A DNA stretch of 64,000 nucleotides, from contig NZ_CP157522.1 of the NCBI RefSeq assembly GCF_049075655.1, forward strand, positions 1,598,949 to 1,662,948, written 5' to 3'. The notes below the pieces were generated by a model. It ran no database searches and had not been told where the DNA came from. It saw only the letters and a program-made list of their open reading frames with translations. The DNA is from Methanothermococcus sp. Ax23. GTDB lineage: Archaea > AGJL01 > Methanococci > Methanococcales > Methanococcaceae. Position numbers and translations under genes: made by a program. Within the stretch, counting starts at the first letter, position 1; each line of letters begins with the position of its first letter. Shown piece after piece: positions 472-52,283 of this stretch.

Positions 472-1275
472 TTATTTTTTATGGGTCAATTTATAAATTA
501 AATTACTTAATTCCACTATTTTTTTAATATTTAATTTAAAAACCCTCTCGTTTAAATCAAATTCTGATAAGTTATTCAATATATCTTTCAGCTCATCACG
601 ATTTAAACCAATTTCATGAGATGAGTTGATAAGTGCTTTTTTAGCAGTTTTGTTTTTATGTTGGAATAGAGCTCTCACTACCTTCTCAAAAAATTCTTCA
701 TCTTCTAAATGGAAAAGTTCATTAGGCTCTTTTTTGGTAATTCTTACAATTGCAGAATCTACTTTTGGTTTTGGTGAAAATGCAGATGGTGGAACTTTAC
801 ATATAAATTCTACATTTGCGTTATATTGCACAGATACGCTTAATCTTCCATATTCTTTTGTTCCTTCCTTTGCCACCATTCTTTTAGCAAATTCATATTG
901 ATACATCAAAACTGCAACCTCAAAATCAGTTTTTAGAAATTTAAATGTAATCGGGGATGATATTTGGTAAGGTAGATTTGCTACTATTTTGTTAAAATTT
1001 AATTCATTTAGATTAACTTTTAAAGCATCATTCCAAATTACATCAACATTTGGATGCTCGGCAATTACCTCTTCTGCAAAAGGCTCCAATCGCTTATCTA
1101 ATTCGATAACATATACCTTTTTTGCATTTTTTGCCAATTCTTTTGTTAATATCCCTTTACCAAGACCGATTTCTAAGACTATATCGTTTTTATTTACATT
1201 GGCAGCATCTACTGCTTTTTTTACAATATTTTTATCTTTTAAAAAACACTGTCCTAATTTCTTATTTTGTTTCAT
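472..1275 (-). CDS. ksgA: 16S rRNA adenine dimethyltransferase KsgA/RsmA/Dim1
   Basis: [16 protein letters not shown] and VANLPYQIS motifs. True start taken as ATG 1275; the 19-aa extension in the ORF track comes from a repeat element. Confidence 0.93.
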
Positions 1276-1283
1276 AATCCCAC

Positions 1284-1353
1284 ATCTAGGTTCCAAAACG
1301 AGCGATAGCGAGTTTTGGACTTTGGATAGCAACCTTTTTTAAAGGTTGCTTAT
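1284..1353 (+). repeat. Double-hairpin interspersed element, copy A, flanked by a 42-bp direct duplication (1242-1283 / 1354-1395)
   Basis: taggtTCCAAAAC-gagcgatagcga-GTTTTGGA ctttggat AGCAACCTTT-ttt-AAAGGTTGCT; flanks identical at 41 of 42 positions. Confidence 0.9.
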
Positions 1354-1473
1354 AAAAACACTGTCCTAATTTCTTATTTTGTTTCATAATCTCACTAAAA
1401 AAATAAAAATTATAATATTAAAAATTAAAATTAAAAATTATTTTAAAAAGATAAAAATACAAGAGAGAGACAT

Positions 1474-3450
1474 CTATCTTAATAATTCAATAATCTTTTC
1501 TTCAATCATTTCCTTAGGTTTATTTGTTATATTGGCAAGTCCATCTGCGAATATAACGGCATATTTCAAAACATATTTCTTTTTCTGCTCTTCTTCCTTT
1601 TCTTTTCTTATTCTTGATATATGTTTTTCAAGCCCTCTTGCACATATCATCAATGCCTGCCTTATTTCATTAAATATCTCTTCATTTTCCTCGCTACTGC
1701 ATGCCACTGCCTGCTTTCCAGCTGATGTATATGGAATATGAGTAGATATTAAATTTACAAACACCGTTAATGGAACATCTTCTTCGCTCCTAAGTCCATA
1801 TCTTCTCCAATTTACGCTTTTAACGGCATTTGTTATGCCACATCCCGATGTATCAAACAGTAATGGAACATGGTTTGCAAATCTCATTATCTCCATTTTT
1901 CTTGTATTATCCGATATTCTTCCTGCCTCTCCACCGTATGCCAGCCCTACCTCAACTGCGAATGGAATTCCTCCCTTATAGGTTTTTGGTCTCCTTGTAA
2001 GTGTCATTACAAATTCAGGATTAAGTGTTTTTAAAGATTCCTTTATATTTTCCTCGCCAATAGGTCTTAAACCAGCTGTGGATGGTGCCATGAAGTCCAT
2101 ATCTTGAATTACCCTAACAATCAACTCTGCATCATTCCAATCCATGTTTTTCGGATTCTTTTTTAGAAGATTCTTTATTTCATTTTTGAATCTTTCGAGC
2201 TCCTCATTTGATACCATTCCCATATCCACTAATGAATTTACAAATTCTTTTGGACTTTTGGTAATGTTTCTAAGTTTTCTCCTAAACTCATCCATTAACG
2301 AAGCATTTAAATAATTTTTCTCTGCAAATTCAATGAAATTTTCAGGTTTCTTTTTAAAGTGCTTTTTAATCTCTTTCAGCGTTTCTTCATCTAATTTGTC
2401 AAGTAAATAATCCATTATTAAATATTTTAAATAATACATTTTTAACTCGGATAAACTATCAGGAAGGGTATTTATTATGTCCTTAACCTCTGAAATTTCC
2501 TTTTTATCCACATATTTAGAGAATTTTTCAATATAATCGTTAATTTTTACATTTAAATAACAATCCACTACAATATCCCAAAATGTGCTGTCCCTGTAAT
2601 TTTCAAGTAGTTTATCCCTTAAAATATACTCTTGGAGCTCCTTTATTCTCTTGGATGTCATCCTTGATAACTCACTTGTGAGCATGCTTGAAATTTTTAT
2701 AGACTCAGTCCTTCTTGATATGTATAGGAGCTCATCTGGGGTCAAACCATAAGGATGGGGTTTCATTTCCTCAGGTCTTTCAGGAATATCTTCAACTGTC
2801 CTATCAAAAACTACGGTTTCCTCTGGGTCGATAAGGGTTATTTTAGCATGGGGTGTGGATAAGCTTATTCTTCTCAAATATTCAAAAGGTCCCTGCTCTC
2901 TTCTGTTGTATGTAACTTCTTTAAATTCTCCTTCAACTTTTGTCCCTCTCCAAAATCCTTCTCTTATTTCATGAGAAACAACATCTCCTTCGTTTTTTTC
3001 AATGCTCATCTTTATTTCCATTGTATGAATTTCCCCATCTCCTGTTGATGTGATGATTTTCAAAGGTTTTCCTGTTGTCACTTGTGCAAATAAAAGGACT
3101 CCCGCAGCACCAATACCCTGCTGACCTCTGGATTGAACAAGTCTGTGCATCTTTGAACCTGCAAGCATCTTACCAAAAACCTTTGGAACAAACTCAGGGG
3201 GAATTCCTGGACCGTTATCCTCAACAACAACTTTATAATGGTCTGCCCCAAGTTTTTTAATTTCTATGTTAATATCTGGTAAAATTTCCGCTTCTTCACA
3301 GGCATCCAATGAGTTTGTTACGAGCTCGTGAATTATGGTAGTCATACTTCTTAACTTACCACTGTATCCAAGCATGTGTCTGTTTTTTCTAAAAAACTCG
3401 GAAATTGAATGCTCTTTAAATTCATCAAATATGACATCGCTTTCAGCCAT
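1474..3450 (-). CDS. top6B: DNA topoisomerase VI subunit B
   Basis: GHKL motifs [32 protein letters not shown] transducer domain; start MAESD preceded by ggtga RBS. Confidence 0.95.
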
Positions 3451-49966: not shown

Positions 49967-51355
49967 ATGGATGCTTTGGAAAAAAACATAGAATATACAT
50001 CAGTATCAAGTGTTGCCGGTCCATTGATAGTAGTAGAAGGAATTAAAGGAGTAGCTTACGGAGAAATCGTAAATATCACATGTCCAGATGGAGAAAAAAG
50101 AACAGGACAGGTTTTAGAAGCAAGGGAAGATGTTGCAGTTGTTCAGGTTTTCGAAGGGACAACAGCATTGAACACAAATGAAACAAAAGTAAGATTTACA
50201 GGAGAAACTGCAAAAATCGGAGTATCTCCTGAAATGCTTGGTAGAATATTCAACGGTGCTGGAAAACCACTTGACGGCGGTCCTGAAATTATACCTGAGA
50301 AAAAACTCGATATTAACGGATACCCATTAAACCCAGTTTCAAGAAAAAGCCCAAATGACTTCGTTCAGACAGGTATCTCCACAATAGACGGAACAAACAC
50401 ACTTGTTAGAGGTCAGAAATTACCTATATTCTCAGGTTCAGGTCTTCCACACAACCTCTTAGCAGCACAGATTGCAAGACAGGCTAAGGTTAAAGGAGAA
50501 GGGGAACAGTTTGCGGTAGTATTCGCAGCTATGGGTATTACAGCAGAGGAAGCAAACTACTTCATGGAAGAATTCAAAAGAACCGGAGCTCTTGAAAAAG
50601 CAGTAGTTTATATTAACCTTGCAGATGACCCAGCTATCGAAAGAATCCTTACACCAAGAATTGCATTAACAACAGCAGAATACCTTGCTTATGAAAAGGG
50701 AATGCACGTTTTAGTTATCTTAACAGATATTACAAACTACTGTGAAGCTTTAAGGGAAATTGCAGCAGCAAGAAACGAGGTTCCAGGAAGAAGAGGTTAC
50801 CCTGGTTACATGTATACTGACCTTGCTACACTCTACGAAAGAGCAGGAAGGGTTAAAGGTAGAGAAGGAACAGTTACACAGATACCTATCTTAACAATGC
50901 CACACGACGACATTACCCACCCAATCCCTGACTTGACAGGATATATTACAGAAGGTCAGATAGTTCTTTCAAGAGAGCTCAACAGAAAAGGTATATACCC
51001 ACCAGTTGATGTTCTTCCATCACTTTCAAGATTGGCAGGAAACGGACAGGGAGAAGGTAAAACAAGAGATGACCATTCAAAAGTTATAAGCCAGGTATAT
51101 GCAGCTTATGCAGAAGGTAGAGGTTTAAGAGACCTTGTTGCTGTTGTTGGGGAAGAAGCTCTTACAGAAAGAGATAGGGCATACTTAAAACTTGCAGATG
51201 AATTTGAAAAGAGATTCGTTCAGCAAGGAAAAGATGAAGACAGAAGTATTGAAGAAACATTAGACATAGTCTGGGAATTATTAACAATACTCCCAAGAGA
51301 AGAATTGAAGAGAGTTCCAGAAGATTTAATTGAAAAATACCTTCCAAAAAAATAA
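49967..51355 (+). CDS. atpB: A1AO ATP synthase subunit B
   Basis: [15 protein letters not shown] and [13 protein letters not shown] motifs. Confidence 0.97.
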
Positions 51356-51438
51356 TAACATAATATAAAAACATAAACTATTGTCCTAACTTTTTAATTT
51401 TTTTATTTTTAACTATAATTTCACTTTTGAGGGATAAA

Positions 51439-52080
51439 ATGGCAGATGTTAATCCTACAAGGATGGAACTGTTAAAGCTTAAAACCAAAATTAAACTTGC
51501 TCAAAAAGGGCATAAGCTATTAAAACAGAAAAGAGACGCTCTTATAATGGAGTTTTTTGAGATATTAGACCAGGCATCAGGTATTAGGGACAAGGTAAAT
51601 AATGCCCTTGAAAAAGCATACAAGAACTTAATAATGGCACAGGCAGTAATGGGGACTCTGGCAGTTAAAGAGGCTTCCTTTGCATCAAAAAATGAGAACA
51701 TTAAATTAGATGCAGATACAAGAAACATTATGGGTGTTACAGTTCCTGTTCTCGAAATCGAAAATGTTAAAAGAAGTATGGCAGATAGAGGATATGGTCC
51801 TTATGGAATATCTTCAAAACTTGATGAAGCTGCAAAAGAATTTGAAGAAGCATTGGAACTTATTGTAGAGCTCGCAGAGATAGAAACTTCCATAAAATTA
51901 CTTGCAGAAGAAATAATTACAACAAAAAGAAGAGTAAATGCTCTTGAATATGTTGTAATACCAAGAATGGAAGAAACACGAAAATATATTGCCATGAGAT
52001 TGGATGAAATGGAAAGGGAGAACTTCTTCAGATTGAAGTTAATTAAGGCTAGAATTGATGCTAGGGAAGAAGAAGCCTAA
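51439..52080 (+). CDS. atpD: A1AO ATP synthase subunit D
   Basis: [18 protein letters not shown] and TKRRVNALE motifs. Confidence 0.96.
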
Positions 52081-52150
52081 TAGGTTCCAATCGACACGAG
52101 CGATAGCGAGTGGAGATTGGACTTTTGATACAACTTTTTCTAAAAGTTGC
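52081..52150 (+). repeat. Double-hairpin element, copy B, flanked by a 57-66 bp duplication of the atpD 3' end
   Basis: taggtTCCAATC-ga-CAC-gagcgatagcga-GTG-ga-GATTGGA cttttgata CAACTTTT-tct-AAAAGTTG; 52024-52080 matches 52160-52216 at 55 of 57 positions. Confidence 0.92.
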
Positions 52151-52283
52151 AGGGGGAGTTTCTTCAGATTGAAGTTAATTAAGGCTAGAATTGATGCTAG
52201 GGAAGAAGAGGCTTAATTAAAATTTAAGTTCTAAAAGAACTAATATTTATATTATAACTTTTTATAAACCTTTTGGTGGTTTT

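Follow-up and report, generated by a model that had tools for sequence, protein, structure and literature searches.

How does a short hairpin element come to lie between two long copies of the end of a gene and yet leave that gene intact? The question is raised by a 64,000-nt stretch of DNA from Methanothermococcus sp. Ax23 (genome G000), hereafter the window, in which four copies of such an element sit beside a ksgA-type rRNA adenine dimethylase gene, a tRNA-Val gene and the gene for subunit D of an A/V-type ATP synthase (atpD). The window is part of a 1.66-Mb chromosome of 32% G+C, and window coordinates are positions within the 64,000 nt. We compared these copies with those of other genomes (G002, G003, G007, G008, G010, G012 and others, with G013 and G017 from other genera), scanned with a covariance model, R1, and with L-numbered loci that include the environmental contigs L133, L134 and L135. 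Tandem duplication of one contiguous segment cannot produce a lone element with a repeat on either side, so duplication and insertion must be coupled. We consider it probable that the copies belong to a mobile element family of Methanococcaceae with insertion-coupled long duplication.

The element and its flanking repeats

At the ksgA-type gene (472..1275, minus strand; Pfam RrnaAD, E=1.6e-61), the gene body is adjoined by the left repeat copy, a 42-nt segment at 1242..1283 that takes in the start codon (ATG) and first codons together with the ribosome-binding site. The element core follows at 1287..1349 on the plus strand, antisense to the gene, with the hairpin 1 variant CGAGCGATAGCGAG and hairpin 2. 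On the 3' side of the element, the second repeat copy (1354..1395; 42 nt, one mismatch) is a displaced ksgA pseudo-start, and the two copies, 1242-1283 and 1354-1395, are 98% identical. The intact atpD gene (51427..52080, plus strand; Pfam ATP-synt_D, E=2.2e-69) closes with a repeat copy holding its final ~19 codons and stop (52015..52080, plus strand), after which come the core, in sense and with a long hairpin 1 variant (52081..52150, plus strand), and a pseudo gene end (52151..52216, plus strand) that gives way to the original downstream DNA. Here the direct repeats measure 67 nt (52015-52081 and 52151-52217) at 93% identity.

Two copies of the element stand in tandem beside the intact tRNA-Val(gac) gene (41807..41883), where all features are on the minus strand. 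The first repeat copy runs from the T-loop to the tRNA 3' end and through a native trailer of ~40 nt (41768..41830), and element copy (a) (41707..41767) ends in a 3' tail, GTTTGG, that continues into the second repeat copy, a pseudo tRNA 3' part with its trailer (41644..41706). Further out lie the degenerate copy (b) (41583..41647), both hairpins of which are variant types other than those of copy (a), and, strongly decayed, a third copy of the tRNA end together with its trailer (41530..41582; 41542-41567 is 81% identical to 41780-41805). The direct repeats at this site span 74 nt (41633-41706 and 41757-41830) at 78% identity, and decay grows with distance from the gene.

A preliminary description of the window had reported the four copies, their placement between long direct repeats at these genes and the identities of the three host genes, all of which our analysis confirmed; R1 also recovers the degenerate copy (41583-41642, E=4.3e-9). 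The extents given for the element were slightly under-called, missing an extra 3' tail and a ragged 5' extension. The core of ~62-70 nt opens with TAGGYTCC, followed by hairpin 1, which has either tandem G.A mismatches or a CGAAG loop. A linker, TTGGAYTTTGGAT, leads to hairpin 2, whose loop is T5-8. The core is flanked by an AT-rich 5' extension of 8-19 nt with a ragged edge and by the 3' tail GC-GTTTGAAT; the element as a whole measures 65-90 nt. There are no terminal inverted repeats, as the 5' TAGGYTCCAA and the 3' GGTTGC(GTTTGAAT) are not inverted copies of each other.

Both hairpins of the window copies fold far better than shuffled sequences (z -4.5 to -7.9; none of 200 shuffles equalled them), and when 14 copies are aligned, compensatory changes affect 8 of the 18 consensus pairs. 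About ten types of hairpin 1 and six of hairpin 2 occur, in combinations shuffled between copies, and orthologous sites at tRNA-Pro, tRNA-Gly(gcc) and the subunit D gene hold different hairpin variants in different genomes. The copy at locus 1472228 is ~95% identical between G000 and G010 with flanks at 75%. Constraint, exchange between copies and repeated use of the rebuilt target are all at work. An Rfam search of the window returned only tRNA above the gathering threshold, the best match to the element reaching 20 bits against a threshold of 80.

Some copies are composite, with a second multi-hairpin module (starting CGAGCGATAGCGAGAAATC and ending ATTTTGAGA) lodged between the hairpins, in the linker or inside the loop of hairpin 2; examples are G000:C1:426560-426691, 1259635-1259761 and 1316704-1316825 and loci L047 and L077. 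At the junction of the nested module, only a few T residues could be a duplication.

A profile built from the four window copies gave 23 matches with E<1e-3 in the Ax23 genome, all chromosomal, and R1 found 24 copies at 17 loci. One locus is an array of seven identical 112-nt units, each consisting of repeat and element, and arrays of two or three units also occur in G012, G010 and G003. A flanking direct repeat scoring at least 16.5 was present at 15 of the 16 Ax23 loci examined, compared to 27 of 3000 random positions put through the same procedure. At locus 256645 the score came from a neighbouring tRNA, and a genuine 25-nt repeat is present all the same. The target duplications are 20-85 nt long, the length varying by locus. 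Across five genomes, a repeat accompanied 38 of 40 unique loci that retain hairpin 2; seven of the alignments in this set start at least 12 nt off the junction, four of them on neighbouring tRNAs or array units and three being weak and offset. Usable metagenome loci gave a similar picture, with a duplication at 9 of 10. Most copies therefore have the duplications seen in the window, which runs against the refuting outcome named beforehand.

Within the genus, high-scoring R1 copies occur in 4 of 13 genomes (24 in G000, 18 in G012, 15 in G003 and 3 in G010). R1 has matches in 24 of the 61 genomes overall, with weaker relatives in other genera of the order. Repeats flank 4 of 10 loci in G013, two of them starting in a tRNA T-loop, and 5 of 10 further loci in G017, after 1 of 6 in an earlier set. 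At three G017 loci (L117, L119 and L123), a related hairpin element lies between sequences that resemble CRISPR repeats (..AAAATCAG.CCCTTAGG.GGATGGAAA..), and it is apparently a CRISPR repeat that has been duplicated there as the host segment. The CRISPR repeat of the Ax23 genome is unrelated in sequence to the element. Viral contigs contained no exact match to the element motif.

Targets, junctions and the history of sites

In the Ax23 genome, 8 of the 17 loci follow tRNA genes, seven lie in sense after the 3' ends of protein genes and two lie antisense just upstream of gene starts. The tRNA targets comprise 7 of the 36 tRNA genes called by aragorn and one displaced tRNA-Leu 3' end, while at three of the seven protein-gene 3' ends the stop codon is the element's own TAG or TAA. 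The gene body stands on the TAGG side at every locus read by eye, on which the polarity rule rests (an automated open reading frame (ORF) scan over the relatives' loci was too noisy for counting), and polymorphic sites in relatives agree. The element is thus in sense after 3' ends and antisense before 5' ends. A polar, non-autonomous family whose long duplications leave the gene intact, as had been proposed from the window, accordingly describes the copies across the genome, where polarity is uniform.

Oligo-T tracts terminate archaeal transcription, and the sense strand of the element has a T-run of 5-8 in 14 of 14 copies, compared to runs of no more than four on the antisense strand. In 12 of the 14 copies, two or three sense frames contain stops, and in 12 of 14 only one antisense frame does. 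Copies would then persist only where a sense T-run, a probable archaeal terminator, and stop codons are harmless, and selection would purge sense copies from 5' leaders because of such termination. A special selection of ORFs reading through the antisense element was also considered and dropped, since two of three antisense frames are open anyway.

Downstream of many tRNA genes lies a conserved trailer of ~40-45 nt (TTTTTATTTTAG..ATATTTAT.AATTTAAATATA), for example at window 41768-41806 (minus strand), which contains a TATA-box-like sequence. The trailer is native, since it is present after tRNA-Gln in four congeners that have no element.

The two junctions of the element differ in character. 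Wherever the target is a tRNA, the right-hand repeat starts within the T-loop, at GTT(T/C)(G/A)AA, next to the element tail GCGTTTGAAT, which itself resembles a T-loop. About 15 of 22 tRNA-site junctions, from different tRNAs and genomes, read GC-GTTTGAA where the native loop is GTTCAAAT or GTTCGAAT, and a few carry native or mixed sequence. The same two differences from the native loop recur at many sites and mark the tail as part of the element. At protein genes, the target at the start of the repeat resembles the tail (for example GTTGGAGT, TTTGGAT or GTGGAAAT), and the junction is often a mosaic of both. On the other side, filled and empty alleles differed in all five comparisons by 8-19 non-native bases between the repeat and TAGG, and these share an ATTA- or TATA-like motif resembling the end of the native tRNA trailer. 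The far edge of the duplication also varies. The 3' end of the element is thus fixed and guided by homology, and the 5' end is ragged, looking as though copying had started at differing positions upstream of a donor linked to a tRNA.

Empty single-copy alleles, which the preliminary description had predicted, exist in relatives and in near-identical environmental strains. The subunit D gene end is filled in G000 and G012 and empty in G010, G007, G002, G008, G013 and G014. Site 827030 is filled in G000 and G003 and empty in G012, G008 and G010, while 1472228 is filled in G000, G003, G012 (with hairpin 2 deleted) and G010 (as a composite copy) and empty in G008. Site 155708 is filled in G000 and G012, partly deleted in G003 and empty in G010. 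Two sites, at ~1,001.9 kb (filled in G003, G012 and G010) and ~1,574.9 kb (filled in G003 and G012), are cleanly single-copy in G000, indicating precise loss there, as recombination between the repeats would give. At tRNA-Glu (741 kb), G003 and the environmental contig L133, which is 99% identical to G000, are filled and G000 is empty. The clearest recent gain, within ~1-3% divergence, is at 840.6 kb, where the element is present in contig L134, whose flanks match G000 at 99.3% and 96.9% identity, and G000, G003, G012, G008 and G010 are empty. The left flank is the more divergent, so this insertion may have come in by recombination from a lineage that differs slightly. Contig L135, which joins the flanks of two different element loci, was treated as an assembly chimera.

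At the 1472228 and subunit D sites, the repeat copies within one genome share substitutions that tell the genomes apart, so the copies are homogenised and repeat identity is no clock. Downstream of tRNA-Val(tac), G000:C1:40560-40670 holds a footprint made of the trailer, TAGGTTCTAAG and a second trailer copy; the hairpins seem to have been deleted and the duplication kept, and G012 has a full element at this tRNA.

One RNA-library contig (run X1; 609 nt, zero mismatches) omits exactly one unit of repeat plus element at the subunit D site (window 52023-52160). The skip is of 136 nt with 50 nt of ambiguity, and the joint was not seen in three other runs, whose contigs break at element copies. 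The RNA evidence consists of assembled contigs, and the skip could be an empty allele, a jump during reverse transcription or an assembly jump across the repeat; a pattern search of metagenome DNA for the empty subunit D allele gave no match.

Copying routes, candidate enzymes and rival explanations

A fixed, homology-guided 3' junction together with a ragged, donor-like 5' edge and a variable duplication is the signature of copying that is primed from, or returns to, the target. Target-primed retroposition and template-switch repair both leave such junctions. We tentatively favor, as a possibility rather than a probability, a non-autonomous element copied by two template switches or, equivalently, by target-primed DNA copying. 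The element would be copied and not cut out, with a DNA 3' end running out of the gene terminus and switching by microhomology to a donor copy just upstream of TAGG. Copying would pass through both hairpins, and the tail would then re-anneal to tail-like target sequence upstream of the point of departure, so that the target stretch would be copied twice; no element-specific enzyme would be required. A DNA route is favored because no reverse transcriptase was found, the element has an internal T-run and its loop motifs are known as very stable DNA hairpins. In spirit, the junction anatomy agrees with the earlier suggestion of strand displacement or target-primed copying, and the mechanism remains inferred. 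The accompanying claim that insertion regenerates the gene end also holds in that a duplication spanning the gene terminus does so, but this is an automatic consequence, with selection explaining the intact gene.

The element might accordingly be a passenger of repair, selfish or domesticated DNA that has no enzyme of its own and hijacks template switching at stalled 3' ends, its T-loop-mimicking tail steering the return and rebuilding the gene end; we regard this stronger version as rather doubtful. The overall reading, which blends a mobile family showing coupled long duplication with the template-switch route, comes somewhat short of being probable.

Searches for genes that might mobilise the element were made with Pfam models. 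Y1/HUH transposase (PF01797) had no match in G000 or G012 and a split one only in G010, and reverse transcriptase (PF00078) had none in five genomes; control genomes gave matches with both models (3 of 14 controls for PF00078). These results do not support the HUH/Y1 or reverse transcriptase mobiliser that had been named earlier. Tyrosine recombinase (PF00589) was found in all four element-bearing genomes of the genus, compared to one strong (G008) and one weak, sub-cut-off (G007) match among eight genomes that have no element. Cas1 was tested in five genomes and occurred in all of the element-bearing ones (3 of 3) and in neither of the others (0 of 2).

The strong Ax23 integrase match lies in a separate integrated element of 21.4 kb at tRNA-Leu(taa) (G000:C1:281973-303482, outside the window), which holds a tyrosine recombinase ORF of 332 aa and is flanked by a 62-nt repeat (98%) spanning the anticodon loop to the tRNA 3' end (loci L068, L069, L125, L126 and L132). 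Three environmental contigs join tRNA-Leu(taa) straight to the distal flank and thus come from strains that have no 21.4-kb element. A hairpin element with its own repeat sits beyond the distal attachment (att) copy, and it therefore predates the integration.

Among resident insertion sequences (IS) and MITEs (miniature inverted-repeat transposable elements), no family was found to share ends with the hairpin element. The Ax23 genome has 15 PF01609 (DDE) matches, and ends were compared with two IS families only, a 1.17-kb DDE IS (CTGACAGTGTGA) and a TnpB-type IS, both of which differ. The latter, of 1.5 kb (Pfam OrfB_IS605 with a Cas12f1-like TNB domain), occurs at G000:C1:130443-131960 and in ~10 other copies; the copy examined is split. 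It has ~30 MITE derivatives of 300-380 nt built of its two ends, one of them 50 nt from the seven-unit array, and a partial copy of ~290 nt lies at window 6848-7136. A further repeat family of ~315 nt, with copies 88-98% identical, is represented at G000:C1:237723-238038 and ~9 more places, one of them (1598584-1598897) just before the window. The second contig, G000:C2 (7732 nt), has two end-reaching ORFs (570 and 668 aa) with weak DEAD/ResIII helicase matches, which may form one gene if the contig is circular; no Rep, replication initiator, integrase or transposase was recognised among its encoded proteins.

Against copying by template switches stands, as a serious though unlikely rival, a dedicated trans-acting enzyme, either a widely staggered transposase or a tyrosine recombinase that uses the T stem-loop, in which case the duplication would be a genuine target-site duplication. 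At tRNA genes the right junction shows high site specificity, and T-loop start points are reportedly typical of tRNA-targeting integrases. The hairpins, conserved with a specific G.A motif, may be a protein-binding site, and PF00589 accompanies the element in the genus as described above, a co-occurrence that is confounded by kinship; the strong integrase match belongs to the 21.4-kb element, whose repeat starts in the anticodon loop and not the T-loop. Variable duplications can be enzymatic. The preliminary description had held that DDE transposons usually duplicate only ~2-14 bp, but IS1549 and IS1634 are exceptions, with 8-514 bp (PMC2266710). The lack of terminal inverted repeats, the ragged 5' edge, the variable repeat length and the protein-gene targets, which have no T-loop, all tell against an enzyme of this kind.

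It is very improbable that the hairpins are conserved, immobile terminators or regulators, each a stable structure beside which slippage or unequal crossing-over produces repeats locally. Identical units in tandem arrays (7 x 112 nt in G000), repeat copies that evolve in concert, the strong conservation of the element at ksgA and a T-run confined to the sense strand would suit that explanation, whereas the layout around single elements is not derivable from tandem duplication of a contiguous segment. The same family occurs at unrelated genes with empty single-copy sites in relatives, filled sites have non-native bases on the 5' side of the element, one site holds different hairpin variants in different genomes and one was gained within ~1-3% divergence. 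A retroposition of the kind known from short interspersed elements (SINEs), by target-primed reverse transcription of an element transcript, matches the geometry, in which the tail passes into the beginning of the right-hand repeat, and the triad of SINEs and long interspersed elements (LINEs) is present, namely variable duplications, a ragged 5' end and a 3' end that is fixed and shares microhomology with the target. We nevertheless judge it very improbable, given no PF00078 match in five genomes while controls matched, and given that the internal T5-8 run should stop archaeal transcription before the 3' arm and tail. CGAAG loops and tandem G.A mismatches are moreover classic motifs of stable DNA hairpins.

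Several observations weigh against copying by template switches or against the wider picture of a mobile, selfish family. A full copy at locus 46587 has no flanking repeat, nor do several copies that have only hairpin 1. Mismatches are only weakly enriched close to the 3' junction (13.5% over the first 15 nt, ~9-11% farther out), and this gradient is given no weight. Most insertions are old and common to several species, and because concerted evolution maintains repeat identity, junction details may have been rewritten since insertion. Selection does not fully account for the uniform polarity at 3' ends, where an antisense copy downstream should be harmless and none was seen. Compensatory changes in a DNA palindrome can come from templated correction, so that selection, for example on RNA, is not proven by them. 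The ksgA copy is identical at 65 of 65 positions in G000, G012 and G003 with flanks only 83-94% identical, which points to function and constraint and not to a purely selfish element. Tyrosine recombinase and Cas1 both track the element, the two correlations being confounded by kinship, and a dedicated enzyme of an unrecognised family is a serious rival. The mechanism itself is read from junction anatomy, no step having been observed.

Comparison with known systems

Small structured repeats are common in prokaryotes. The scar left here is unusually informative: the duplication is long and variable, the 3' junction lies in the T-loop and is guided by homology, the 5' edge is ragged, loss is precise and arrays grow. 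The family is also polymorphic among near-identical natural strains, which, with genetic tools available in relatives, makes the mechanism testable. Should no dedicated enzyme be involved, a short sequence could spread purely via host replication and repair, which would explain how gene ends gain terminator-like modules undamaged; a passenger of repair would represent a new class of mobile element in prokaryotes, the archaeal counterpart, at the level of DNA, of SINE insertion. An enzyme, if there is one, would make cuts tens of bases apart or put T-loops to a new use. For annotation, the adjoining pseudo gene ends and pseudo tRNA 3' halves should not be taken for gene fragments or integrase att sites.

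Literature searches yielded no description of the duplication signature, the closest named family being MJRE, as represented by a sentence that cites it (PMC2229807). That sentence presents MJRE1-3 as repetitive palindromic elements from Methanocaldococcus jannaschii (Suyama, Lathe and Bork 2005, FEBS Lett, via PMC2229807), some copies of which are in frame within coding regions. Like our element they are short palindromic intergenic repeats in Methanococcales; unlike for our element, the citing sentence mentions no long flanking duplications, T-loop anchor or polarity. In the sister family, to which M. jannaschii belongs, R1 gave weak matches in 13 of 17 genomes (E 1e-4 to 1e-5), a level that does not show homology. 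RepRanger (PMC12306157) contributes only palindrome counts in two Methanocaldococcus genomes.

In being small, structured, non-autonomous, multi-copy and mostly intergenic, the element is like MITEs, repetitive extragenic palindromic (REP) sequences and bacterial interspersed mosaic elements (BIMEs), and palindrome derivatives of IS200/IS605, and the composite copies with nested hairpin modules recall mosaic BIMEs. It is unlike MITEs in having no terminal inverted repeats and in duplications of 20-85 nt that vary in length, where MITEs have target-site duplications of fixed length (2-10 bp) and the three groups together 0-10 nt, and the genuine TnpB-type MITEs of the Ax23 genome have different ends. 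A Y1 or REP-associated tyrosine transposase (RAYT) gene, as in REP systems, is absent from G000 and G012, and in contrast to IS200/IS605 derivatives, which insert free of target duplication, 15 of 16 Ax23 loci have long duplications. Variable direct repeats of 8-514 bp are described for IS1549 and IS1634, of the IS1634 family, with no known model according to the account in PMC2266710. These are autonomous DDE elements of 1.6-2 kb with inverted ends, whereas the present insert of 65-90 nt has neither transposase nor inverted ends. The duplication signature is not readily explained by any described transposition mechanism.

Integrative elements that target tRNA genes are similar in that a repeat of the tRNA 3' part flanks the insert, starts in a stem-loop and leaves an intact gene on one side; integrase-less remnants of such elements are known as cis-mobilizable elements (CIMEs). 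The Ax23 genome holds a textbook case, with 62-nt repeats 21.4 kb apart and an integrase. The hairpin element differs in being a geneless insert of ~65 nt, found at no fewer than eight tRNAs as well as at protein-gene ends, with a variable repeat and a ragged 5' edge. Insertions of SINEs and LINEs, and replication-based repair with templated insertions by fork stalling and template switching or microhomology-mediated break-induced replication (FoSTeS/MMBIR), both described in eukaryotes, share with the element a fixed microhomologous 3' junction, a variable 5' edge and duplication and bases from the donor flank. Unlike for SINEs and LINEs, no reverse transcriptase was found in the five genomes searched, and the literature searched held no description of a recurrent, sequence-defined passenger using a template-switch route. 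CRISPR integration by Cas1-Cas2 likewise duplicates a host segment on both sides of the insert and builds polarised arrays of repeat and insert. In that system a repeat of fixed length separates unrelated spacers of ~35-40 nt, whereas here a single insert family is flanked by a repeat that is whichever gene end it adjoins.

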